DNA of 12,461 bases from Candidatus Bathyarchaeia archaeon. Its GTDB lineage: Archaea; Thermoproteota; Bathyarchaeia; Bathyarchaeales; Bathycorpusculaceae. The notes below the pieces were generated by a model that did no database searches, was not told the origin of the DNA, and worked only from the letters and a program-made list of their open reading frames with translations. Below are positions 1,493 through 12,461 of this stretch, piece after piece. The stretch spans positions 1-12,461 of the forward strand of contig JAVZLK010000043.1 of the NCBI GenBank assembly GCA_038883795.1, read 5' to 3'. The translations under genes and the position numbers were made by a program. The number at the start of each line of letters is the position of its first letter. The stretch's first letter is position 1.

Positions 1493-1508
1493 CTAAAAAA
1501 ATAATAAA
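1493..1508 (-). terminator. Putative archaeal oligo(T) terminator of the minus-strand operon
   Basis: The minus strand reads TTTATTATTTTTTTAG immediately after the TAA stop at 1509-1511. Confidence 0.5.
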
Positions 1509-2750
1509 TTATCTTTTTCTTTTTAATCCAATGAGCTCGACACAGATTTGAGGTAAAAATGCAGCGAAGACTGTTGAAAAGGGTTCTAATTTCCTTAGTT
1601 GGCTTCCTTTACCCAGAACCATGAACCCTTGGTCTTTTAATTCTTTAATGCTGTATTTAGATAAATAGAGGCAGTATGCTTCGTTTAATGGCGCACCATT
1701 ATTAGGACAACGCACAAGTATAGATCTTCCTATTTCTTCAAGTTTTTTTAACAGTTCCTTACCTTTATCTTTATGAAGATACTCTAAAAGGCTCCAGACA
1801 ACGCATAAGTCAAAGGCTTTAGGTCTAAACGGAAGATGCGTTAGAGAGCATAAAACGTAATCCTTATGTATTCTTATTCTTCTACTAGCATGTATAAAGC
1901 AGATGTCCTCGGAAACTCCTACGCTGTAACAGTCGGTTAGCCGGGGCAAATAATTGATAAGAAAAGGCTGTGTAATTGGTATTGTACCTACATCAAGGAC
2001 ATTATTAAATGACCCAAATGAGAAATTTAATATGACGACACCGATTTTAAGAAGTATTCGCTTTGATACATCTTTTAATGTCTTCATTAAATAAGGTTCT
2101 GCTAGTTTTAGACTCACAGTTCCCGTAGTTTTGTGTATCACATGGAAGGTATCCTTGTGTTTCAGCACCAGCCTAAAATCATCTTCTTCTAATTTCCCGA
2201 TGTTGAAGATAGGCGCAGTGGATGAATTGTGATAGACGGATAAAGGCAATACATAGGTTTTTAATCCAATCAAATTAGCTCTTAAACAATAGTCAGCAAC
2301 GTAAGAGTGAAATTTGAAGCCTTCATCAAATTTCAAATGTTCAAAAACTGATGCAGGGGTAATGAGCAATTGTTCGTCTAAAGACATCACCTCAACTGGA
2401 AGCTTTATGGGCCGCCCCCAAATTCTCCCCCTATCTACAATAAACCCCCTAGGGCGACCCTTATGGTCCATGCCGGACACGCCTGCTGCACCTAAATCTT
2501 TAAATGATTTCAAGAAGACCTCAGCTTTTCCCAACCAATCTTTGCCGACAAGTTTGACATCTTGGTGAACAAACATTAAAAACTCCCCTTTCGCTTTTAG
2601 AGCTGCTTCATTCAAAGCCTTAGTTAAAGGGCGAGAGGTCGGGTTACCTGCCAAAATAAGGTCAAATGCTTTTTCCTGAAGATTAAGGCTTGTGAGCAAG
2701 TTTAGTTTTAACGTCTTTTCATCATTAAATACACATATTATTGAGAACAT
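1509..2750 (-). CDS. Fusion of a GT2-like glycosyltransferase (HQD-type, Glyco_tranf_2_5-like) and a C-terminal class I SAM-methyltransferase-like domain
   Basis: N-terminal SIICVFND, NEAALKAKGEFLMFVHQDV, LDEQLL and FDEGFKFHSYVADYCL. C-terminal VLDVG and LPFRPKAFDL..LLEYL. ATG 2750 is preceded by SD-like GAGGGGTG; alternative start is 2783. Confidence 0.8.
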   Translation of the reverse strand: MFSIICVFNDEKTLKLNLLTSLNLQEKAFDLILAGNPTSRPLTKALNEAALKAKGEFLMFVHQDVKLVGKDWLGKAEVFLKSFKDLGAAGVSGMDHKGRPRGFIVDRGRIWGRPIKLPVEVMSLDEQLLITPASVFEHLKFDEGFKFHSYVADYCLRANLIGLKTYVLPLSVYHNSSTAPIFNIGKLEEDDFRLVLKHKDTFHVIHKTTGTVSLKLAEPYLMKTLKDVSKRILLKIGVVILNFSFGSFNNVLDVGTIPITQPFLINYLPRLTDCYSVGVSEDICFIHASRRIRIHKDYVLCSLTHLPFRPKAFDLCVVWSLLEYLHKDKGKELLKKLEEIGRSILVRCPNNGAPLNEAYCLYLSKYSIKELKDQGFMVLGKGSQLRKLEPFSTVFAAFLPQICVELIGLKRKR

Positions 2751-2808
2751 GCCACCCCTCGCTTCGTACCTGTCTTTTTTCATTTATGACTAAATTCCAC
2801 ATTGTGTG

Positions 2809-3744
2809 CTATTCTATGTTTTCAATTGCAGTTTTATATGTTTGATAGATCACTTTTGCTGCCTCCTTTATCCCTCCCTTTTCCTCATTCGAAAGCTTGT
2901 CATATAACGATGAACCGATAGATCGCCCGAGTTTTATCGGGACCCCGACAAAAACTGGTTCGGGTAATCCCTCAAATTTTGTTGGAGCCGCCACAGAGAG
3001 TATTTCTCCTCTATCCTTTATTATAGCCTCAACAATGTTTTTGAAGGAGGCCGCTGGACCATATTCCGTTCCTCCAATATTATCTATTACAAACTTTGAA
3101 ATTGTTTTCACATAGGACCCAATTTCTTCTTTGTGCAGGATTTTACTATTTGACTTAGCATAAATTTCCGCTTGTACACCGTTTACTTTCGTTGTTGACC
3201 AGAGGACGACTGCAGCTTCACCGTGTTCTCCTCCGACCCACCCTTGCACCTTGGATACTGGCACTTTTAGATCAGACGCCAACTTAGATCGAAATCTCAT
3301 GGATTCAAGGTTCGTTCCAGTACTTATTACAAAATCAGCTTTTGAGTACTTTTTGCACACCATAGCCATTGCATCGACAGGGTTTGTTATAACGATATAT
3401 TTTGCGCCCGGGTTTCTCGGAGAAACTGTTTCTGCAATAGATTTTACTATTTTTGCGTTTTTCACAGTCAAGTCTCTTCTGCTCATTTGAACTCCGGGTA
3501 TTCGGGGCTCTCCCGCAGCTATTAAAATGATGTCTGCTCCCGTAACTTCTTCGTCTTTCTCGCATGCAAATATTTCAACATCCAACCTCAGACTTGCTGC
3601 AACATGCTTGAGTTCCTCTGCAAAGGCAGGGGCAAGTCCGGGTTTTGTATCACATACGGTTATTGCATCGGCAAAACCTGCACACATGAGGGTGTATGCT
3701 GTAGGACGCCCCACTCGTCCAGTCCCTATTTGGGCGATATGCAT
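2809..3744 (-). CDS. Lactate/malate dehydrogenase family protein (LDH-like MDH fold, divergent active site)
   Basis: GTGRVG Rossmann motif, VCD, AAGEPRIPGVQMSRRDL, ITNPVD, GTNLESMRFR, GEHG and TEYGPA. ATG 3744 follows GGGAGG (3755-3750) directly after the rmlD stop. Confidence 0.88.
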   Translation of the reverse strand: MHIAQIGTGRVGRPTAYTLMCAGFADAITVCDTKPGLAPAFAEELKHVAASLRLDVEIFACEKDEEVTGADIILIAAGEPRIPGVQMSRRDLTVKNAKIVKSIAETVSPRNPGAKYIVITNPVDAMAMVCKKYSKADFVISTGTNLESMRFRSKLASDLKVPVSKVQGWVGGEHGEAAVVLWSTTKVNGVQAEIYAKSNSKILHKEEIGSYVKTISKFVIDNIGGTEYGPAASFKNIVEAIIKDRGEILSVAAPTKFEGLPEPVFVGVPIKLGRSIGSSLYDKLSNEEKGGIKEAAKVIYQTYKTAIENIE

Positions 3745-3755
3745 CTTCGCCTCCC

Positions 3756-4634
3756 TCATCGACATTTGCCATCGGCTAAGCTTATGTGACCTTTTTCAGC
3801 TAGATAATCACGGAGGGCTTCTCTCCAACTCCTCATTTTTATGCCATAGTTCTGAAGTTTTACGCTTTTTAGCGCCGAAAAACGTGGTCTTTTAGCTTTC
3901 ATTTGCAACTGGTCAGTTTTGATTGGTGTCAGGTCAGGGGTTAGGCTTGTTATTTTGAATATTTCTTCTGCAAATTGAAACCATGTGCAGAAGCCTTGAT
4001 TTGTTACGTGATATGTTCCGAAAGGAAGCTTTGCGTTTATTATTCTTTTTATCACAAAAGCTGCATCTCGCGTGTACGTGGGACTCATCCACATATCATC
4101 TACAACACTTATTGGCTCCTTCTTCTTAGCTTTGGCTATCATCGTCTCGACAAAATTTCCCCCTTTACCGCTGGCCCCAGCAGCACCGAACAAACTTGCC
4201 ACTCTAATAATGTAGTGCTTTGGATTTTGCCTAGTGTAAAGTTCACCCGCCAGTTTGGAGATTCCATAAGTGTTAATTGGATTTGGCACATCCTCTTCTG
4301 TGTATGGCTCGTTTTTAGAACCATTAAAAACATAATCTGTGCTCATAAAAACTGTTACGGCCCCAACTTCTTTTGACGCCATGGCCACGTTTCTGGCGCC
4401 AATTGCATTTACAGCAAATGTCTTTGTCGGATCATCTTCGCACTGATCAGTTTTATGGAATGCAGCAGTATTTATCACCACATCGGGGCGAATTGTTTTT
4501 AATAACTGACAAGAATTATAGTCTGTTACCTCTATGTCTTGGTGCGTTAAACCCACCGTTTCGTGTTCTTTTGCCAGCGTTTTCATAAGATCCGTGCCAA
4601 GTTGCCCCGTTGAGCCTATGACAACTATTTTCAT
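3756..4634 (-). CDS. rmlD: dTDP-4-dehydrorhamnose reductase family
   Basis: GSTGQLG, PDVVINTAA, STDYVF, PINTYGISKLAGE, SPTY and AKRPRFSAL. ATGA overlap with the upstream SDR. Confidence 0.9.
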   Translation of the reverse strand: MKIVVIGSTGQLGTDLMKTLAKEHETVGLTHQDIEVTDYNSCQLLKTIRPDVVINTAAFHKTDQCEDDPTKTFAVNAIGARNVAMASKEVGAVTVFMSTDYVFNGSKNEPYTEEDVPNPINTYGISKLAGELYTRQNPKHYIIRVASLFGAAGASGKGGNFVETMIAKAKKKEPISVVDDMWMSPTYTRDAAFVIKRIINAKLPFGTYHVTNQGFCTWFQFAEEIFKITSLTPDLTPIKTDQLQMKAKRPRFSALKSVKLQNYGIKMRSWREALRDYLAEKGHISLADGKCR

Positions 4635-5647
4635 AGAATTACTCCTTTAACCTCGATTTCCTTAATGAGTGCGTGCATTTCGAGCAAGTGTTTATACCAT
4701 TTGACCGTTATCGTCTTAGGGTCATCAGCGTTTAATCTTCCATCCTTTAAAGCATCAAAAACTTCTCTTGCCCCATTTTTTGGCGTGTACTGCGGCTTAA
4801 AGTTTAAAGTCTTTTTTATTTTGTCAAAGCTCACTCTATAACTTCTTGCATCAGGCGAGCCATACCACTCGTAATTAAATGGCAAGTTAATGGATTCTGC
4901 AACCAGCTTTGCTAGGTCAAATATTTGCATGTTTTGCTCATTGCTTCCTACATTAAAAATTTGGCCGTTGACAAGTTCATTGTCTGCCTCCAAAACTGTA
5001 AGAAAGGCGTTCGACGTGTCTTTCACATGAATAAATGGACGCCATTGTTTTCCATCTCTCATTATGGGTATTTTTCCGTTCTTGAAAAAGCCAAGAACCA
5101 TTCCGTTTATCGCCAAATCAAACCTCATCCTTGGAGAGAAACCGTAAACTGTCGCTTGTCTTAGAGCGGTTACAGTAAAATTTTTGTTAGCTAATGGCAT
5201 AATTTCTTTTTCTGCAAGAACATTCGCTTTTGCATATGTTGTCAGGGGATTTAAATTGGATTCCTCTGTCAAAATGCCTTCTTGGAAACCGTAAACGCTA
5301 CAGGTACTTGCTAGAACGTATCTTTTAACTCCATGCTTTTTGGAGAGTTTGGCCACCCTCACTCTTCCTTTATAGTTTATTTCAAGCGTCTTTTGAGGGT
5401 CCAGTTCTCCGCTTGGGTCATTTGACAGAGAAGCTAAATCAAAAACCGCGTCTATCCCTTCCAGTATTTCAGGGTTAAACCATCTAACATCACCCTTAAT
5501 CAACGTTATTTTGTCCACTATAGCTTTAATCGGGTCTAATCCGAAAAAGAGTCTATCTAAACATGTTACTTCATAGCCTCTTTCCAAAAGAAGTCTTGTA
5601 AGGATTGAACCAATGTATCCTGCTCCACCAGTTACCAAAACTTTCAA
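4631..5647 (-). CDS. Atypical extended SDR NDP-sugar oxidoreductase/epimerase (not a canonical RmlB)
   Basis: TGGAGYIG, GDVR, LASLSNDP, ASTCSVYG, YAKAN and RQATVYG..RMRFDL. TTG start with GGAGG at 5660-5656. Confidence 0.85.
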   Translation of the reverse strand: MKVLVTGGAGYIGSILTRLLLERGYEVTCLDRLFFGLDPIKAIVDKITLIKGDVRWFNPEILEGIDAVFDLASLSNDPSGELDPQKTLEINYKGRVRVAKLSKKHGVKRYVLASTCSVYGFQEGILTEESNLNPLTTYAKANVLAEKEIMPLANKNFTVTALRQATVYGFSPRMRFDLAINGMVLGFFKNGKIPIMRDGKQWRPFIHVKDTSNAFLTVLEADNELVNGQIFNVGSNEQNMQIFDLAKLVAESINLPFNYEWYGSPDARSYRVSFDKIKKTLNFKPQYTPKNGAREVFDALKDGRLNADDPKTITVKWYKHLLEMHALIKEIEVKGVIL

Positions 5648-5659
5648 GTTATTTTCCTC

Positions 5660-6175
5660 CTATTTATGTGGCGGCTGGAACCAATCCCATGGCTTGCCAA
5701 CTCTTGGATCGTCTTTTTTACCGTTTATTTCCGTCGGTATTATTTTTGGGTCGTTCCATGGTCTTCGGATTTCATCTGGGGTTTTGTAGTCATAGATTCT
5801 CGTGACGAAATACATGGTTAATGAGGGTGTGTTGCTGACTGTTTTGGTTCCATGAAGGTATTTTCCAGGTATGCGAACAATCGAGGGTTTTTTGCCGCTG
5901 GCTACGATTTCAACCATTTTTCCAGTTTCCTCTTCATACGCACAGATTTTCATAGCGCCTTTTAAAACAACGAAATAATCCACTTGACCTCTTTCGTGTT
6001 TATGCCATGCTCTAACAATGTTTGGATAACTATAGCTTATGTTTGCTTGCGCTATCCATTCTTCTTCAAGGAACTCTTTCCAATCTTGTCTTAGGGCTTC
6101 AGCGAAAAAGCCTCTTTCGTCGGGTATTATGTTTATTTCTTGAATTTTCACCCCTTTTAAGGGATATTCCTTCAT
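5660..6175 (-). CDS. rmlC: dTDP-4-dehydrorhamnose 3,5-epimerase family (cupin)
   Basis: DERGFFAE, QANISYS, VRAWH (catalytic His motif), IPGKYLHG and Y..PDE..R.PWNDP. ATGA overlap with the rmlA stop. Confidence 0.88.
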   Translation of the reverse strand: MKEYPLKGVKIQEINIIPDERGFFAEALRQDWKEFLEEEWIAQANISYSYPNIVRAWHKHERGQVDYFVVLKGAMKICAYEEETGKMVEIVASGKKPSIVRIPGKYLHGTKTVSNTPSLTMYFVTRIYDYKTPDEIRRPWNDPKIIPTEINGKKDDPRVGKPWDWFQPPHK

Positions 6176-7230
6176 ATTTCTACCTCTGAGTAGTCACCTA
6201 TGTTTAGTTTCAAAGTTTTGTGTTTCTGGTTTCTAATAATTTTCGCGTTTCGTCCTATCAAGCTTTCTTCTAGTCTCTCAACGTTTTCTATAATGGTATT
6301 TTCCATGATTACGCTATATTCTATCGAGCTTTCCACGATTTGCGCGTTTTTTCCAATGCTTGTGTAGGGGCCTATGAAGGAATTTTGAATTATGCAATTT
6401 TCGCCTATTATTGTCGGCCCTCTTACAGTGCTGTTAATTATCTTCGCGCCGCTCTGAATTGTGACTCTACCTTCAACTTTGCTTTCTTCTATTTCTCCTT
6501 TTATTTCTTGTTTTACGTATTCATCTAGAATTTTAGCATTAGCGAAAAGTATGTCGTCCTTTTTGCCTGTGTCAAGCCACCATGTGTCAAGCCTCTCAGC
6601 TTTAACCTTGCAACCTTGCTTTATCATCTCTTGTATGGCATCCGTTATTTCAAGCTCCCCGCGCCACGAAGGCTTTATGTTTTTTATAGCGTTGAAAATT
6701 TTGTTCGAAAATAGGTAGACACCTACTATGGCAAGGTTACTTGGAGGGATTTTTGGTTTTTCAACCAGTTTAATAACGTTGTTTTTCTCATCCAATACTG
6801 CGATTCCAAACCTTGTTGGATCTTCAACTTCCTTCAGCAGTATTAAGGCATCTAGGTTTTCATTTTCGAAACTTTTAATGAGCGTGTTAAAACCCTTTCC
6901 AATTAAGTTGTCGCCCAAACACATTATGAAATCATCCTTGCCGAGGAAGTTTTGTGCTGTTTTCACAGCGTGAGCCAGTCCCAGCGGTTCTTGAGGTATG
7001 TAGGTAACATTAATGTTCCATAAAGAGCCATCTTTGACATAATTTTTAACGTCTTGGCCTGTCTCTGGAGCTATTATTATGCCAACATCTTTTATGCCTG
7101 TTTTGGCTACGTGATCCAAAACATAGCCTAAAATGGGTTTATTCGCAACTGGAATTAACTGTTTTGCAGTAGTTAGGGTTAATGGTCTAAGTCTTGTTCC
7201 CTTGCCACCGCTTAAAACCAGAGCTTTCAT
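6172..7230 (-). CDS. rmlA: Glucose-1-phosphate thymidylyltransferase, long form with C-terminal left-handed beta-helix
   Basis: LSGGKGTRLRPLT, KQLIPVANKP, GLAHAV, LGDN, VEKP, RGELEITDA and WWLDTG, followed by hexapeptide-like repeats (IIGENCII, SIGKNAQI). Confidence 0.93.
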   Translation of the reverse strand: MKALVLSGGKGTRLRPLTLTTAKQLIPVANKPILGYVLDHVAKTGIKDVGIIIAPETGQDVKNYVKDGSLWNINVTYIPQEPLGLAHAVKTAQNFLGKDDFIMCLGDNLIGKGFNTLIKSFENENLDALILLKEVEDPTRFGIAVLDEKNNVIKLVEKPKIPPSNLAIVGVYLFSNKIFNAIKNIKPSWRGELEITDAIQEMIKQGCKVKAERLDTWWLDTGKKDDILFANAKILDEYVKQEIKGEIEESKVEGRVTIQSGAKIINSTVRGPTIIGENCIIQNSFIGPYTSIGKNAQIVESSIEYSVIMENTIIENVERLEESLIGRNAKIIRNQKHKTLKLNIGDYSEVEI

Positions 7231-7254
7231 AACAAATTTAACGGCAAGCGCGAT

Positions 7255-7270
7255 TATTATAACTTTCTTT
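7255..7270 (-). promoter_or_regulatory. Archaeal BRE + TATA promoter for the rmlA block, probably giving a leaderless or short-leader mRNA
   Basis: The minus strand reads AAAGAAAG-TTATAATA, ending about 25 nt before the ATG at 7230. No SD motif precedes rmlA. Confidence 0.65.
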
Positions 7271-7323: not shown

Positions 7324-8409
7324 TCAACAGAAATTTAGTTTGCTACCACGTTTTGTAAGAATTTCTGAAACAGATCTTGACGAAAGCCCTGAGGACCATG
7401 ACCCATATTTTATGTAAGTTTTTAGGATTTGCGAGTAAAATTTCACGATAGGAATTTTTATTACCGGATAAGTTTTTGCCGTGCAATTTAATTTTCTAAG
7501 CCAATTCCTTAACGAATAGCCTAAGAATATTCCATTAATAAACTCTCTTAGTATAAGTTTGTCACGTCTTGCATATGCGGTTACCAGATAAAAGGCGAGT
7601 TTCTCTAAGAGTTTTAGAGGATAAAACCTATCGTAAGCCATTATTATTGCAATCATGTTCCTCCATGGGAAGTACACCATCATATGACTGAACCTTTTGG
7701 TTGTTACTGAACCAAAGTGATGGCCAGCTACAATTGGCACGTAGGCAATTTTTGAACCGGTACACCAAAGTCTAAGTCCTAATTCTAAGTCGTCAGCATA
7801 CATAAAGAAGGGAGAAAAAAAGAGGCCCCCACCCTTAAGCAAGGAGTCAACTCTAAAAACCGCGTAAGCACAGCTAATGTAACTGACAAACGTTTTCTTT
7901 GAGGCTTTGAAGTCACGCCCATAAACATATGTATACCAGAAATTTGTTACAAAAATCCCTGCCGAATCAACTTTTGTGCCGTCCCAATTTAAAATTAAGC
8001 CTTGTACTCCCCCTATATCGTCATTATCCTCCAAGAAGCCGACAAGTTTCTTTAAAGAATCGGGTTCAGGTAAAAGATCGTTGTTTATTAAGGCAACGTA
8101 CTTGGCTTCCTTACTTCTTTTTGTAAGCGCTATGTTATTGGCAACGGTAAAACCATAATTCTTAGGCAGCTTTAAAAACTTGACAACTATATCCTTCGGT
8201 GCAAACTTTTTCACAGCATCTTTAATGTACTCGAAGCTTCCATCAGTAGAACCGTTGTCGACAATAATTATTTCTAAAGGTCTATAACCTATACTAATTA
8301 TGCCCTTTAGCGACTCCAGAACAATTGTTTTAGTCGCCAGCGAATTGTAATTTACGGTAATTACCGTAACTAAAGGTCTATGAACTTTGTTATCTTTAGA
8401 TTGCTCCAT
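7324..8409 (-). CDS. GT2 family glycosyltransferase (WbbL/rhamnosyltransferase-like)
   Basis: VTVITVNYN, VDNGSTDGS, NYGFTVANN, INND and FFMYADDLELGLR. Start is uncertain (ATG 8409 or GTG 8430). Confidence 0.88.
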   Translation of the reverse strand: MEQSKDNKVHRPLVTVITVNYNSLATKTIVLESLKGIISIGYRPLEIIIVDNGSTDGSFEYIKDAVKKFAPKDIVVKFLKLPKNYGFTVANNIALTKRSKEAKYVALINNDLLPEPDSLKKLVGFLEDNDDIGGVQGLILNWDGTKVDSAGIFVTNFWYTYVYGRDFKASKKTFVSYISCAYAVFRVDSLLKGGGLFFSPFFMYADDLELGLRLWCTGSKIAYVPIVAGHHFGSVTTKRFSHMMVYFPWRNMIAIIMAYDRFYPLKLLEKLAFYLVTAYARRDKLILREFINGIFLGYSLRNWLRKLNCTAKTYPVIKIPIVKFYSQILKTYIKYGSWSSGLSSRSVSEILTKRGSKLNFC

Positions 8410-8444
8410 TCCTTCATCACTTAATTGCACAGTTAGCTTATGTA

Positions 8445-9299
8445 CTAGAACACCTCTGATAATAGAAACTTTATTTTCTGTTTCTGGTAGTTTTTAAGCC
8501 ATTTCCTAAATTCTTCTCGATGTTTATCGCCTCTCAGCCAAGAATACGTCCAACCGTAGAGGCTTAATGGAACGCATAAAAGATAAGGTTTCTCAGTTAA
8601 CGAAATTTTTGCAAGTCTGCCCAAAAAGTAAAGTGGATGATATCCAAAACGGTAAGTAGTCTTTCCTAATCTCACTCTTTGCTTCAGTATGCTGCCTAAA
8701 GGCTGTGCATGAAAAGGTCTCATATGGATGCTTTTCGCCTCTTTCAAGAATAAAGTTTTCCAACCTTTCATCTGCGCTCTAAAAAGCAGAAAAGCATCTT
8801 CTGAATCCACTATTGGCATAAAACCTCTATCGCTTATGTCAAACCACGTCTCCATTCTTATAACCATGTTGGCTCCAACTATTGAGCTTGCTCCCTCGTT
8901 TATTAAGACCCCCCCAACTATTCCCAACCTTTCATCCACACTGAACCTCTCCATCATCTTTCTGAAATAATCCGGGAAAAGGAAGATGTCCGCATCTATC
9001 TTTGCTAAATATTCATATTCTTTAATGTTGACAGTCTTCAGTCCGTAATTGAAAACTTTAGGTATTTCAGTGGTATGCACACGGTCAACCTTACGTTTGC
9101 GCATTACAAACTTTATCAAATCTCCATGTTTATTGGCGATGGATTTGACAAGTTCTGGTGTTCTATCTGTGGATGCATCGTCTACCACAACTATTGTGGA
9201 TGGTTGTTTAGTTTGGTTTATCACGGAACTTAAACATTTAACTATAAAATTCTCCTCGTTATGAGCACATACAAGTACAAGAATCTTATCACTGGACAT
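8445..9299 (-). CDS. GT2 family glycosyltransferase
   Basis: CAHNEE, VVDDASTDRT, KIDADI (DxD), SED and a GYHPLYF C-terminal region. Confidence 0.9.
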   Translation of the reverse strand: MSSDKILVLVCAHNEENFIVKCLSSVINQTKQPSTIVVVDDASTDRTPELVKSIANKHGDLIKFVMRKRKVDRVHTTEIPKVFNYGLKTVNIKEYEYLAKIDADIFLFPDYFRKMMERFSVDERLGIVGGVLINEGASSIVGANMVIRMETWFDISDRGFMPIVDSEDAFLLFRAQMKGWKTLFLKEAKSIHMRPFHAQPLGSILKQRVRLGKTTYRFGYHPLYFLGRLAKISLTEKPYLLCVPLSLYGWTYSWLRGDKHREEFRKWLKNYQKQKIKFLLSEVF

Positions 9300-9308
9300 T
9301 AATTTCTA

Positions 9309-10298
9309 TCATCCTATCAGAAATTTGTATAATAACCTCTGAGCACCAGACTTGTATTTAAAATTCCTTATCACGTCCCTATCCGCCAGTTTCTTCGCTT
9401 TAGCTAGATGCAACCTGTATCCTCTGTACTTGGCAAGTACCCCGAGACCATCCAAGTAGCCGAAAAACATGTAAACATTGTTTCTGAGATCATATCCTTT
9501 TGCAACTGTTCTTGCGACAATATGCATAAGTTTGGCAAGCAAAATCTTTACGAAATATTTGTTTCCAAATAGTTTGTAGGCTGTTAGCACTTGATTTCTA
9601 GTGGCTAGTCTAACTATTTTGGATCTGTATCGTCCAGAAGAACCTCCGACAAAGTGAATCAATTTGCTATCCATAACGTATCCTATTTTGCCACCCGCGA
9701 ACAAAGTTCTCAAACTCAAGTCTAGGTCCTCGACCGCCATGAAATAAAACTCGTCAAAAAGGTATTCTACTTCTTTTAACCATTTTCTATGAATAAGGAA
9801 ACATGCCCCGCTGGCAAACGCCGAATCAACTATATCTCTTTTTACGTCACCTTTAGGGGAGTATACGCTGGCGTCAAAGTAAACTGTAATGTCTCTGGTT
9901 TTGCCTCCTTCTTGATCTGGCAGTTGAATGCTTGCTAGGAGTTTGTACTCAGGGTTGTTGAGGGCAGCTTTAACTAGTTTCTCTAGCCATCTCTCTTGCA
10001 CTATTGTGTCGTTGTTTAAGAAGAGAAGATATTCTCCCTTTGCGTATTTTAATGCTATATTGTTGGCTTTTGCAAACCCGTAATTTTTGTCTTGCTCCAA
10101 GAGCTTGACATTTGGGTAATTACTTTTAACGAATTCACAGCTTCCATCGCTTGAACAATTATCAACTAAAATTATCTCATAGTTTGTGTAGCCCTGCTTA
10201 TACAATGAGTCTAAACAGTTCTTTAACCATTTAATGCCGTTGTAATTTACGATAATAATACTAATCAATGGAGATGCTGGATTCACAGCGGTAAACAC
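9309..10298 (-). CDS. GT2 family glycosyltransferase (WbbL/rhamnosyltransferase-like)
   Basis: ISIIIVNYNG, VDNCSSDGS, NYGFAKANN, LFLNNDT, SGACFLI and FDE..EDLDLSLR. GTG start. Confidence 0.9.
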   Translation of the reverse strand: MFTAVNPASPLISIIIVNYNGIKWLKNCLDSLYKQGYTNYEIILVDNCSSDGSCEFVKSNYPNVKLLEQDKNYGFAKANNIALKYAKGEYLLFLNNDTIVQERWLEKLVKAALNNPEYKLLASIQLPDQEGGKTRDITVYFDASVYSPKGDVKRDIVDSAFASGACFLIHRKWLKEVEYLFDEFYFMAVEDLDLSLRTLFAGGKIGYVMDSKLIHFVGGSSGRYRSKIVRLATRNQVLTAYKLFGNKYFVKILLAKLMHIVARTVAKGYDLRNNVYMFFGYLDGLGVLAKYRGYRLHLAKAKKLADRDVIRNFKYKSGAQRLLYKFLIG

Positions 10299-10324
10299 CC
10301 TTTTAGACCTTTGAATACGCAGAA

Positions 10325-10338
10325 TAAATAAACTTTAA
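10325..10338 (-). promoter_or_regulatory. Putative BRE/TATA promoter for the three-GT2 cassette
   Basis: The minus strand reads TTAAAG-TTTATTTA, ending about 27 nt before GTG 10298 in a 75-nt gap. It shares the AAAGTT junction with the rmlA promoter. Confidence 0.5.
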
Positions 10339-10373
10339 GGCGTGGAAGAGTTCAGCGCTACAATAGCAATTTG

Positions 10374-11309
10374 TTAAATTAATCTTGAGGCGTTACTTTG
10401 TTTCAGCAGTTCACCTAAACCATTGTGTAAGGTGAAGTTTGGTTTGTATCCAAGTTTGTGTTTAGCTTTTTCTATGTCTGCCCAACTTCTTCTGATGTCT
10501 CCTTCCCTCGGTTTCGCATAGACTGGTTTAATATTTTTAAAACCAAATTTGTTGATTAAAATTTTTGCAAGTTCTTTTATGGAAGTTTCTTTTCCAGAGC
10601 CTACGTTGATTTCGCCTGCACATTCTTTGGCATTCATAGCTTTGTAGAAGGCGTCAACAACATCTAAAACGTAAACGAAGTCTCTTGTTTGCGACCCGTC
10701 ACCGAAAATTATTGGTGGTTTGCCAGACCTTAATTGGCGGATGAACCGTGAAATAACGCTGCTGTATGAGTCCCCTTCTTGTCTTGGACCATAAACGTTG
10801 AAAAGTCTGAGGGAAACAGTTTTCAAACCGTAGAGTTTGTTGAAGACCTGGCAGTATTTTTCTGTTGTGAGTTTTGAAACGGCGTATGGCGATAAGGGGT
10901 TTGTTGGGTGTTCCTCGTTTATTGGAAGGTATTGTGGCTCGCCATAGACAGCGCATGATGATGCATAAATGAACTTTTCAACATTGTTTTTGATACTTTC
11001 CTCTAAAATGTTTAGGGAACCACAAACATTTACTTGGTTAACAAGTAGCGGGTTTTTGACGGAAAATGGAACATCGACAAGCGCCGCCAAATGAAAAACA
11101 ACTTCAACATCTTTTAAAGCCTTCTTAACAAGTTCTTTATCGCGAATGCCGCCTTTAAGGAAGAGGAGATTTCGATTTTTCAAGTCAAGATTCTCGGTTT
11201 TGCCCGAGGACAAGTCATCAAGAACCACCACGTTACAATCTTCCTTTAAAAGCCTTTCAACCAAGTGGCTTCCGATGAAACCAGCACCACCAGTTACTAA
11301 AACCTTCAT
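10374..11309 (-). CDS. NAD-dependent epimerase (UDP-Glc/GlcNAc 4-epimerase, GalE/WbpP-like)
   Basis: TGGAGFIG, FHLAA, ASSCAVYG, PLSPYAVSK, LRLFNVYGPRQ, GDGSQTRDF and REGDI. ATG 11309 overlaps the GH57 TGA (TGATG). Confidence 0.9.
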   Translation of the reverse strand: MKVLVTGGAGFIGSHLVERLLKEDCNVVVLDDLSSGKTENLDLKNRNLLFLKGGIRDKELVKKALKDVEVVFHLAALVDVPFSVKNPLLVNQVNVCGSLNILEESIKNNVEKFIYASSCAVYGEPQYLPINEEHPTNPLSPYAVSKLTTEKYCQVFNKLYGLKTVSLRLFNVYGPRQEGDSYSSVISRFIRQLRSGKPPIIFGDGSQTRDFVYVLDVVDAFYKAMNAKECAGEINVGSGKETSIKELAKILINKFGFKNIKPVYAKPREGDIRRSWADIEKAKHKLGYKPNFTLHNGLGELLKQSNASRLI

Positions 11310-12461
11310 CACTGTTGTCTCCTAATTCTCTCAACAACAATTTTAGCTAAAGATTTTCTAAGCTGCTCTCCCTTTATCCCTAACAATTTCAGTTTCCTTA
11401 ACTGCTCCACCAAAACCTTGTCGTGAAGCGAATTCTCAGCCCATTTTTCAAAGTCTCCGCGGTTATTGTGGAACTCCAGAGATTTTACATCAACCTTCTT
11501 AATAGCTTTCAATAACCCTTTTAGACTCCAAGCCATCATGCCAGTGAAATTTTCTTCTCCTATGCCAGTGTAAAACAAGAAGGGTTCATTAGCTGCTATA
11601 GCCTCTCTTCTTACTCTACTTTCAAAGTCTAGGATGGTTGCTTGCGCTGTCACGAAAGCATCTGTTGGCGTGTTGAAGGGGCTAAAGTAAGAGTGGACTT
11701 CACCTGGCGCTCCTCCAGCGGTGAACATGTAGTAGAGGTGGTCGCTTGTTTGGAAAAATCTCCATAAACGCAAAAGTTCCTTGTCACCTGCCTCTTTCAC
11801 GAGGGGTTCAAGTCTTCTTACACTTGTGTAGTAAGCCCACTGCATAGTGTTTCCAAGCCAACAACTCGCGTCTCTTTCCAAATCAGCCCAAGAAACAGTT
11901 CCTCCCAGCTCTGGAACATCAATTTCGCCAATAACGTCATGTTTTTCCACAACTTCGGAAGGTGTTGCCAAACGCAAATGCCACCATTTTAAAATTTCTC
12001 GTGGCAAGTGCCTCAGAAATTCATGTATTCCAGTTTCAGGCCAATGGTGCTCTCCGAAGGTTTCATAGTCTGGGAAAATGTTGATGCATTTCCCAGGAGT
12101 TGCCGCCAGCCAACTTGCGTACTTGTCAGCGGTTAGAGGCCATTCATTCCACCATCTGGCTGAAAACCTGAAACCAATGTCATCTGTCAGCTTATAATTC
12201 CGCAGTAAAATCTTAATCTTCTTGCAGCCTTTAGGCTTGTAAAGGTGGTTGGGTGATTTTCCATGTAAGATTCTTTCCACGCCTTCTGTGAAAATTCCTG
12301 CAAATCCCAGTTCTTCCGCGGTTTTTGCTATGGCGTTATTATAAAGTAATTCTGTGTTTTCAAAGACTTTTGGGCTATATTTTAGTAAGTCTCTCATTGT
12401 TTGCCTATGCATTTTCACTTGTTCAATAAATTCGTCTTTTTCTGGGTAAAGGCTTGCAAGC
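11309..12461 (-). CDS. Glycoside hydrolase family 57 (alpha-amylase-like) with C-terminal DUF5752-like domain; 5' end lies beyond the window
   Basis: The frame stays open to the edge (LASLYPEKDEFIEQVKMH). Motifs are NTELLY (nucleophile Glu), LTDDIGFRFS, DYETFGEH (acid/base Asp), SWAD and QTSDHLYYM, with tail PFLFYTGIG..SL..SLEFH..RGDFEKW. Confidence 0.92.
   Translation of the reverse strand, partial: LASLYPEKDEFIEQVKMHRQTMRDLLKYSPKVFENTELLYNNAIAKTAEELGFAGIFTEGVERILHGKSPNHLYKPKGCKKIKILLRNYKLTDDIGFRFSARWWNEWPLTADKYASWLAATPGKCINIFPDYETFGEHHWPETGIHEFLRHLPREILKWWHLRLATPSEVVEKHDVIGEIDVPELGGTVSWADLERDASCWLGNTMQWAYYTSVRRLEPLVKEAGDKELLRLWRFFQTSDHLYYMFTAGGAPGEVHSYFSPFNTPTDAFVTAQATILDFESRVRREAIAANEPFLFYTGIGEENFTGMMAWSLKGLLKAIKKVDVKSLEFHNNRGDFEKWAENSLHDKVLVEQLRKLKLLGIKGEQLRKSLAKIVVERIRRQQ

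Follow-up and report, generated by a model that had tools for sequence, protein, structure and literature searches.

The window analysed here is a 12,461-nt stretch of DNA, which makes up the entire 12.5-kb contig JAVZLK010000043.1 of a Candidatus Bathyarchaeia archaeon (assembly GCA_038883795.1; 2.18 Mb in 81 contigs, 87% complete). The DNA runs containing this stretch carry hot-spring metagenome labels. On the minus strand, positions 1509-7230 are occupied by a run of six open reading frames (ORFs): rmlA, a cupin gene, a gene for an extended short-chain dehydrogenase/reductase (SDR), rmlD, a gene of the malate dehydrogenase (MDH) type and a gene for a putative glycosyltransferase (Table 1). 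The locus is an RmlB-less form of the rml module, i.e. of the module type known for thymidine diphosphate (dTDP)-L-rhamnose, with the SDR in the slot of RmlB. There are 4-nt overlaps between rmlA and the cupin gene and between the SDR gene and rmlD; the other gaps are listed as 12 and 25 nt. The initial annotation had described one promoter, six tightly packed genes and a terminal oligo(T) tract; the genes, a TATA-like sequence and the tract are present.

Table 1. Genes and candidate signals of the minus-strand run, in the direction of reading
Feature	Position	Strand	Basis or remark
TATA-like AAAGTTATAATAAT	7253..7266	-	23-36 nt before the rmlA ATG at 7230, read directly; candidate element
RmlA, long form with C-terminal left-handed beta-helix, glucose-1-phosphate thymidylyltransferase type	6172-7230	-	TIGR01208
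171-aa cupin in the RmlC slot, probable 3,5-epimerase, archaeal short type	5660-6175	-	PF00908, PF14667
338-aa Cj1427-like extended SDR in the RmlB slot	4631-5647	-	Kinship to Cj1427
RmlD-type C4 reductase	3756-4634	-	TIGR01214
Malate-dehydrogenase-type gene, outside the conserved core	2809-3765	-	Probable start Met8, 3744
424-aa putative glycosyltransferase, possible methyltransferase-like C-terminus, last gene	1509-2783	-	PF13712
Oligo(T) tract TTTATTATTTTTTTAG, pattern T3-A-T2-A-T8	1493..1508	-	After the TAA at 1511-1509; candidate signal

The locus shares its gene order and three of its four families with canonical RmlABCD clusters, and RmlA and RmlD are above the curated cut-offs. The long-form RmlA scored 488.6 bits on TIGR01208 (cut-off 320.25) and 198 bits on PF00483. 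On TIGR03992, the model for the archaeal bifunctional sugar-1-phosphate nucleotidylyltransferase, it reached 261 bits (cut-off 292). RmlD scored 302.5 bits on TIGR01214 (cut-off 224.05), carries both the STDYVF and the YGISK motif and matched RmlD of Bacillus anthracis (3SC6) with 209.8 bits. The difference to the canonical clusters is that RmlB is replaced by the SDR (81 bits vs 365, no Thr-Asp-Glu).

In RmlB, the Asp and Glu of the Thr-Asp-Glu triad perform the elimination of water at C5-C6. A genuine RmlB from a related locus reads STDEIYG. The three extended SDRs of the window read FASSSVVYG, LASTCSVYG and ASSCAVYG, in agreement with the initial annotation. The triad of the SDR in the RmlB slot is T115-C116-S117. 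In an alignment of its family (76 sequences, 40-91% identical to the window protein), the triad was Thr/Ser-Cys-Ser, with the Cys and the Ser present in all 76 sequences. The equivalent in Cj1427, the closest characterised relative (see below), is Thr-Asn-Ser, and neither triad includes an acid residue. As its triad has no acid residue, the SDR is without the known dehydration apparatus.

The second unusual feature concerns the YxxxK motif. Tyr138 was invariant in the alignment, but the motif reads Y138-A-K-A-N142 in the window protein, and only 4 of the 76 sequences had the Lys at position 142 (Asn in 52, Ser in 16, Ala in 4). Lys or Arg was found at position 140 (Tyr+2) in 74 of the 76. The four sequences that keep Lys142 were the most divergent ones, though a link to rml genes persists in three. 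The SDR scored 81.2 bits on the RmlB model TIGR01181 (cut-off 365.1) and 105.8 bits on the GalE model (against 262). Judged by its sequence, the SDR is outside the RmlB family: the three defining features, namely a sufficient TIGR01181 score, the Thr-Asp-Glu triad and YxxxK, are all missing. The family itself is large: scoring of 8,000 candidates gave 7,990 significant matches, and each of the best 120 shared at least 79% identity with the query.

Among solved proteins, the best match of the single SDR sequence was Cj1427 of Campylobacter jejuni with 127.5 bits (runner-up 85.9). A 20-member profile gave 172.7 bits for Cj1427, 118.2 for uridine diphosphate (UDP)-glucuronate 4-epimerase and 90.6 for the best RmlB (RmlB structures 70-91). 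The fold pointed in the same direction. The AlphaFold2 model of the SDR (predicted local distance difference test score, pLDDT, 91.2) had Cj1427 at Foldseek rank 1, with an E value of 1.5e-26, template modelling scores of 0.79/0.88 and 31-32% identity. The structures 6VO6 and 6VO8 were assigned to Cj1427 from the titles of the structure entries. Both proteins have the motif ATV(Y/F)G.SPRMR.DL in common. Two differences stand against this likeness. Cj1427 keeps the lysine in YGIDK, whereas Asn, Ser or Ala predominate at this position in the SDR family, with Lys/Arg at Tyr+2, and the conserved C-terminal helix of ~30 residues in the SDR family is without counterpart in Cj1427. Because of the missing YxxxK lysine and the extra helix, the SDR is a relative of Cj1427 and not a plain member of its type. 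The acid-bearing loop SNDPSGELD is also conserved in the SDR family and is not found in Cj1427; the loop was modelled as flexible (pLDDT below 50 at residues 74-76).

A distant relative of the SDR (40% identical) that keeps YxxxK lies at L027:6442-9644, with a short nucleotidyltransferase on one side and a sugar C-methyltransferase (PF08421/PF08484) on the other. No dehydratase was found near it in this neighbourhood. Sugar C-methyltransferases of this kind act on 4-keto sugars, and the placement fits a family that generally supplies keto sugars.

RmlB was also absent from the rest of the assembly. A profile search of the window genome with TIGR01181 gave 11 matches, the best with 202 bits and none above the cut-off. 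Among the 11 extended-SDR ORFs of this genome, T-D-E, T-S-E and S-D-K did not occur, and no acid/base pair follows the catalytic Ser/Thr. That the genome has no canonical RmlB, as initially annotated, was thus confirmed by the search, and the same applied to the 27 other SDR-bearing genomes. These belong to a sample of 401 Bathyarchaeia genomes, in which scoring was limited to the top five candidates of each genome (E <= 1e-100 for the SDR, E <= 1e-90 for RmlB). The SDR was found in 28 of these genomes and RmlB in 114 (109 above the cut-off). No genome of the sample had both: RmlB was present in 0 of the 28 SDR genomes and in 114 of the 373 others. The chance of a zero overlap was 5.8e-5 by genome and 1.4e-4 by genus, with the reservation that related genomes are not independent. 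A functional replacement would lead to this exclusion, and alternative alleles at one locus would lead to the same pattern.

At least 90% completeness was reached by 23 of the 28 SDR-bearing genomes. Full searches of ten SDR-bearing genomes, one of which is the single-contig genome of Ca. Bathyarchaeum tardum, showed no RmlB above the cut-off. RmlB was also not found in five genomes of other lineages, i.e. a Thermococcus metagenome-assembled genome (MAG), Asgardarchaeum, Undinarchaeota, Borrarchaeum and Methanodesulfokora. Given the 28 SDR genomes, the ten full searches and the five other lineages, the absence of RmlB is not explained by incompleteness.

We collected 67 loci whose SDR shares at least 57% identity with that of the window; several incomplete ones end at contig edges. 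Long-form RmlA was present in 59 of the loci, the cupin in 56, canonical RmlC instead of the cupin in 7 and RmlD in 65. All four functions (RmlA, epimerase, SDR and RmlD) were present in 57. Since no other enzyme of this four-gene module would form a keto sugar, the SDR is the sole candidate for this step. The conservation of the six-gene order across archaea, raised by the initial annotation, holds for the four-gene core and not for the last two genes: the MDH-type gene was found in 19 loci and the terminal glycosyltransferase gene in none. The loci came from Bathyarchaeia, Nitrososphaeria, Methanomethylicia, Korarchaeia, three Asgard lineages, Aenigmatarchaeota, Undinarchaeota, Thermoplasmata, the Thermococcus MAG and a Deltaproteobacteria MAG. 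Within Bathyarchaeia, the distribution was patchy (28 of 401 genomes, 18 of 132 genera). This patchiness, together with the cross-phylum identity of 57-91%, points to a transfer of the module as a block.

In the Deltaproteobacteria MAG, a protein of the RmlB family follows the module (L090:7895-8917), and a gene for guanosine diphosphate (GDP)-mannose 4,6-dehydratase lies upstream. The RmlB-like gene was not counted as RmlB, with 347 bits (below the cut-off) and Ser-Tyr-Lys in the position of Thr-Asp-Glu.

Two Bathyarchaeia loci, from two other genomes, hold an RmlB and the SDR in one operon: a canonical RmlB, an RmlD of a second type and a NUDIX hydrolase have been inserted into the operon of the SDR type. 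The order in L078 (1524-8855) is RmlA - cupin - RmlB - RmlD(2) - NUDIX - SDR - RmlD(1) - MDH. In L069 (232-8838), it is RmlA - cupin remnant - RmlB - RmlD(2) - NUDIX - RmlA - cupin - SDR - RmlD(1) - MDH; rmlA is duplicated here, and the cupin remnant comprises 37 residues. RmlB is intact in both loci (463.6 and 466.8 bits, TDE where checked), and each of the two genomes has one RmlC-family gene. The spare epimerase copies of both loci and the spare RmlA of L078 are gone or decayed, and both oxidase-reductase pairs are retained. As the spare shared genes were shed and both pairs were kept, two products fit better than one.

A further locus with traces of RmlB is L054 of Ca. Methanodesulfokora washburnensis. 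At L054:2198-2377, it has an RmlB remnant of ~60 residues from the C-terminus. The remnant sits between an intact RmlD of the second type and the cupin-SDR-RmlD module.

The cupin in the RmlC slot scored low on the RmlC model (39.6 bits on TIGR01221, cut-off 155.75) and better on the Pfam models (47 bits on PF00908, above the cut-off, and 51 bits on PF14667). Its best solved match was the C-terminal domain of Cap5F. The initial annotation counted the protein as RmlC, and an atypical rmlC might be taken as a sign of an unusual sugar. This did not hold, as clusters of the same class with a canonical RmlB have the same type of cupin in their RmlC slot. Cupin homologues adjoin a canonical RmlB in 13 loci (52-59% identical in eight, 32-37% in five), and three genomes of the window's own family have the order RmlA (68-70% identical) - cupin (55-56%) - RmlB - RmlD. 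Hence, scoring low on the RmlC model is typical of this archaeal epimerase family and no evidence of an odd substrate. The catalytic residues of RmlC are His, Tyr and Lys. In the cupins, His58, His60, Asp66, His108 and Tyr128 were invariant, whether linked to the SDR or to RmlB. In the alignment with a canonical RmlC, Asp66 falls on the Lys of its AQAK motif, and the same was seen in the cupins paired with a true RmlB.

A substrate signature was obtained neither from the cupin nor from the RmlD sequences. The cupin signature YLHGTK (SDR-linked) vs YWHGFK (RmlB-linked) was rejected as a substrate marker: 3 of 54 SDR-linked cupins were of the RmlB type, HGF occurs in the canonical RmlC of 7 loci, and a YLHGTK cupin is the sole epimerase in two genomes that keep RmlB. 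For RmlD, a change from Trp to Ser was considered as a sign of a 6-hydroxyl substrate and rejected, as RmlB-paired archaeal RmlDs are also without this Trp. The accessible part of an RmlD paper (PMC4832382) gave no residue-level guidance on this change.

The route of Cj1427 is the nearest precedent for the function of the SDR. According to the accessible part of PMC10680097, Cj1427 oxidises C4 of GDP-glycero-manno-heptose without dehydration; the reduced nicotinamide adenine dinucleotide (NADH) is tightly held, and 2-oxoglutarate recycles it in a ping-pong mechanism. The product passes to the RmlC-like C3/C5 epimerase Cj1430 and the C4 reductase Cj1428 (PMC10680097, same part). In one capsule locus of C. 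jejuni, that text describes a route by a 4,6-dehydratase and the route by Cj1427 as alternatives, with related epimerases and reductases and different sugars. The archaeal loci resemble this route in having an RmlC-family epimerase (63 of 67 loci, cupin or RmlC) and a reductase (RmlD in 65). They differ in the expected substrate, a dTDP-hexose instead of a GDP-heptose, and in the reductase, which is RmlD-type here and fucose-synthase-type there.

The SDR, and not an RmlB, probably supplies the 4-keto sugar of the pathway. For an oxidation of C4 without dehydration, which would yield a 6-hydroxy L-hexose such as dTDP-L-mannose, we see nearly an even chance. The initial annotation had proposed this chemistry. 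It has a precedent in Cj1427, the closest protein of solved structure by sequence and fold; the position in the RmlB slot of canonical clusters, in some cases beside a textbook RmlC, stands against it.

We infer the steps from the enzyme families. Long-form RmlA would produce dTDP-glucose, and the Cj1427-like SDR would convert it with NAD+ into dTDP-4-keto-glucose, retaining the 6-hydroxyl group. The cupin would then epimerise C3 and C5, and the RmlD-type reductase would reduce C4. This would give a 6-hydroxy L-hexose nucleotide, in the simplest case dTDP-beta-L-mannose, or the L-talo form if the reduction were opposite. The reduced cofactor may leave the SDR and serve RmlD or, as in Cj1427, be re-oxidised by a 2-oxoacid, and the neighbouring glycosyltransferases would place the product in a surface glycan. 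The module can be regarded as an rml pathway with an exchanged second step, and in the reading we favour, it resembles the C. jejuni route transposed to a dTDP-hexose.

A wider form of this reading is somewhat more tentative. SDR and RmlD would form a second branch from dTDP-glucose, parallel to RmlB and RmlD, which shares RmlA and the epimerase and makes dTDP-L-mannose or dTDP-L-talose. This branch would have been spread by gene transfer among Bathyarchaeia, Asgard, Korarchaeia, Methanomethylicia, Nitrososphaeria, Thermococci, Thermoplasmata and DPANN, with the active-site lysine moved or lost.

Several observations weigh against an SDR that does not dehydrate. SDR and RmlB are mutually exclusive in the 401-genome sample, the same type of cupin also serves RmlB, and Methanodesulfokora has an RmlB remnant next to the module. 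The SDRs of the Thermococcus MAG and of Asgardarchaeum are flanked by RmlA on one side and a textbook RmlC (288.6 and 273.4 bits) on the other, with RmlD next in line; RmlA and RmlD of the Thermococcus MAG scored 534.5 and 313.4 bits. On the equivalog model, the RmlD of the window reached its 302.5 bits against 192.2-269.5, 226.7 and 244.7 for RmlDs paired with RmlB. Moreover, to our knowledge, neither L-mannose nor L-talose has been described from a natural glycan. Neither a dehydrating nor a non-dehydrating SDR explains why 72 of 76 sequences have lost the YxxxK lysine. The main alternative is that the SDR is a cryptic dehydratase, i.e. an analogue of RmlB that turns dTDP-glucose into dTDP-4-keto-6-deoxyglucose with residues other than the Asp/Glu pair and leads to ordinary dTDP-L-rhamnose. 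The invariant Cys116 and the invariant Asn76-Asp77-Pro78 loop are candidates for such residues, both roles being guesses. The SDR fills the RmlB slot amid canonical RmlA, RmlC and RmlD and never co-occurs with RmlB in the sample, and the order RmlA - cupin - RmlB - RmlD in the same family suggests a replacement in place, as does the remnant in Methanodesulfokora. In two genomes, RmlB has to rely on the SDR-type cupin, and the acid-bearing SNDPSGELD loop is conserved in the SDR family and not in Cj1427. On the other side, neither of the two acid positions of RmlB is occupied by an acid or a base, and all nucleotide-sugar 4,6-dehydratases known to us carry an acid or a base at one or the other. 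There would also be a double redundancy if RmlB with RmlD and SDR with RmlD, in one operon of two genomes, gave the same product. The nearest characterised relative, Cj1427, does not dehydrate, and the alternative routes to different sugars in one C. jejuni capsule locus weaken the argument from exclusivity (PMC10680097, accessible part). We regard a cryptic dehydratase as a serious possibility, somewhat less probable than the C4 oxidation without dehydration.

A different substrate or role is improbable. Here, long-form RmlA would activate e.g. another hexose, a hexosamine or another nucleotide, SDR, epimerase and reductase would remodel this sugar, and the product would be neither rhamnose nor L-mannose. 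This is suggested by the additional score of RmlA on TIGR03992 (261 bits vs 292), by the distant SDR relative beside a C-methyltransferase and by the GDP-heptose substrate of Cj1427 (PMC10680097, accessible part). Against it, RmlA is well above the cut-off of TIGR01208, RmlD agrees with its equivalog model, as does RmlC in some loci, and the same types of RmlA and cupin occur in canonical RmlB clusters. The conserved four-gene core includes no heptose or aminosugar genes. Finally, nothing unusual would be left to explain if an rmlB gene lay in the unassembled 13% of the genome and the SDR were accessory, e.g. a dTDP-L-rhamnose 4-epimerase. The assembly is only 87% complete in 81 contigs, and two genomes do hold both RmlB and the SDR. 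However, this idea is already close to refuted and by far the least probable of all: RmlB was found in 0 of 28 SDR genomes, including 23 that are at least 90% complete and one with a single contig, and in 0 of 5 genomes of other lineages. The assembly of the window also carries the module twice, yet no RmlB.

Two further systems were compared with the favoured C4 oxidation without dehydration. GDP-mannose 3,5-epimerase makes GDP-L-galactose and GDP-L-gulose, and a single SDR performs all steps with the cofactor retained. The likeness lies in the sequence of C4 oxidation, epimerisation and reduction, which turns a D- into an L-hexose nucleotide with the 6-hydroxyl group kept; three separate proteins are proposed here instead of one. 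The streptomycin cluster has StrD, StrE, StrM and StrL, of which StrE is a normal dTDP-glucose 4,6-dehydratase. Its dihydrostreptose genes are similar in that RmlA-, RmlC- and RmlD-like enzymes act on a dTDP-sugar; ring contraction or branching is not indicated for our locus. As the streptomycin cluster has its own 4,6-dehydratase, the parallel to streptose drawn in the initial annotation is unsupported.

Whichever way the chemistry of the SDR turns out, the result would be new. No description of an RmlB-less archaeal module was found in our literature searches. A rhamnose survey preprint (10.1101/854612) covers, in its accessible part, other cases of missing genes and not this one. Without dehydration by the SDR, many uncultured archaea would make an L-hexose nucleotide that is absent from current lists of natural sugars, and surveys scoring 'rhamnose pathway incomplete' would misread a different pathway. 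If the SDR does dehydrate, it would be a dTDP-glucose 4,6-dehydratase that lacks the Asp/Glu pair and, in most members, the SDR lysine as well, which would change the textbook picture of the reaction. In this case, archaeal rhamnose synthesis would be under-counted.

The MDH-type protein had its best solved matches in archaeal malate dehydrogenases, with 224 bits (6IHE/6IHD) and 213 bits; it was below the cut-off of NF004863 (199.8 vs 283 bits). In malate dehydrogenases that resemble lactate dehydrogenase (LDH), an Arg lies in the substrate loop, and the His of GEHG is catalytic. The stretch EPRIPGVQMSRRDL aligns with KPRKPG--MSRRDL of 6IHE, with a loop insert of 2 residues. GGEHGE is conserved, and the protein retains both the Arg of the substrate loop and the catalytic His. 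The gene adjoins the module in 19 of the 67 loci, every one of them labelled Bathyarchaeia or Bathyarchaeota. Orthologues at least 50% identical were found in ~22 of 121 genomes of the class, mostly without the module, and in three module-bearing genomes, the MDH-type gene was the sole match to the LDH/MDH family. In G086, it follows RmlD within a canonical RmlB cluster. The initial annotation had seen an LDH-like enzyme that could regenerate NAD+. The protein is a crenarchaeal-type MDH, and a role as NAD+ recycler for the SDR is unsupported by this distribution. The gene probably encodes a housekeeping MDH and, in two families, shows synteny with rmlD. By analogy with the 2-oxoacid dependence of Cj1427, a functional link between MDH and SDR is conceivable. 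A third gene of the LDH/MDH family lies at G000:C7:65158-66048; it is 32% identical to the MDH of the operon, and its type is the sole one in many related genomes.

The last gene had been annotated as a fusion of a GT2 glycosyltransferase and a methyltransferase. The GT2 part was retained, as the N-terminus is weakly GT2-like (PF13712, 33.1 bits vs 27, residues 15-178). The methyltransferase part was not, as this half remained below the thresholds of PF08241 (Methyltransf_11; 19.5 vs 21.2) and PF13649 (18.3 vs 27). Across the 67 related loci, there was no counterpart of this protein at E <= 1e-15, and its proposed role in installing the product is unsupported.

A second copy of rmlA, cupin, SDR, rmlD and MDH genes lies on contig C1 of the same assembly (~91.7-96.1 kb), with proteins 78-89% identical to those of the window. 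C1 is the largest contig of the assembly, and the copy is part of a larger glycan island with two further SDRs and an aminotransferase-like gene. The two copies could be true paralogues or could come from two co-binned strains.

The operon in the window is also part of a longer glycan island. Upstream and in the same orientation (7324-11312, minus strand), there are genes for three GT2 glycosyltransferases (368, 284 and 329 aa) and for an epimerase-like SDR of 312 aa, which scored 226 bits on LegB and 210 bits on GalE, both below the cut-off. At 11309-12418 (minus strand), there is a protein with the C-terminal part of a GH57 domain and, behind it, DUF5752; this ORF may continue past the end of the contig. 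On the plus strand (54-1354), a 123-aa fragment of the GT28 C-terminal/PssE-like kind precedes an epimerase-like SDR of 310 aa (SSSVVYG), and this pair converges on the end of the operon.

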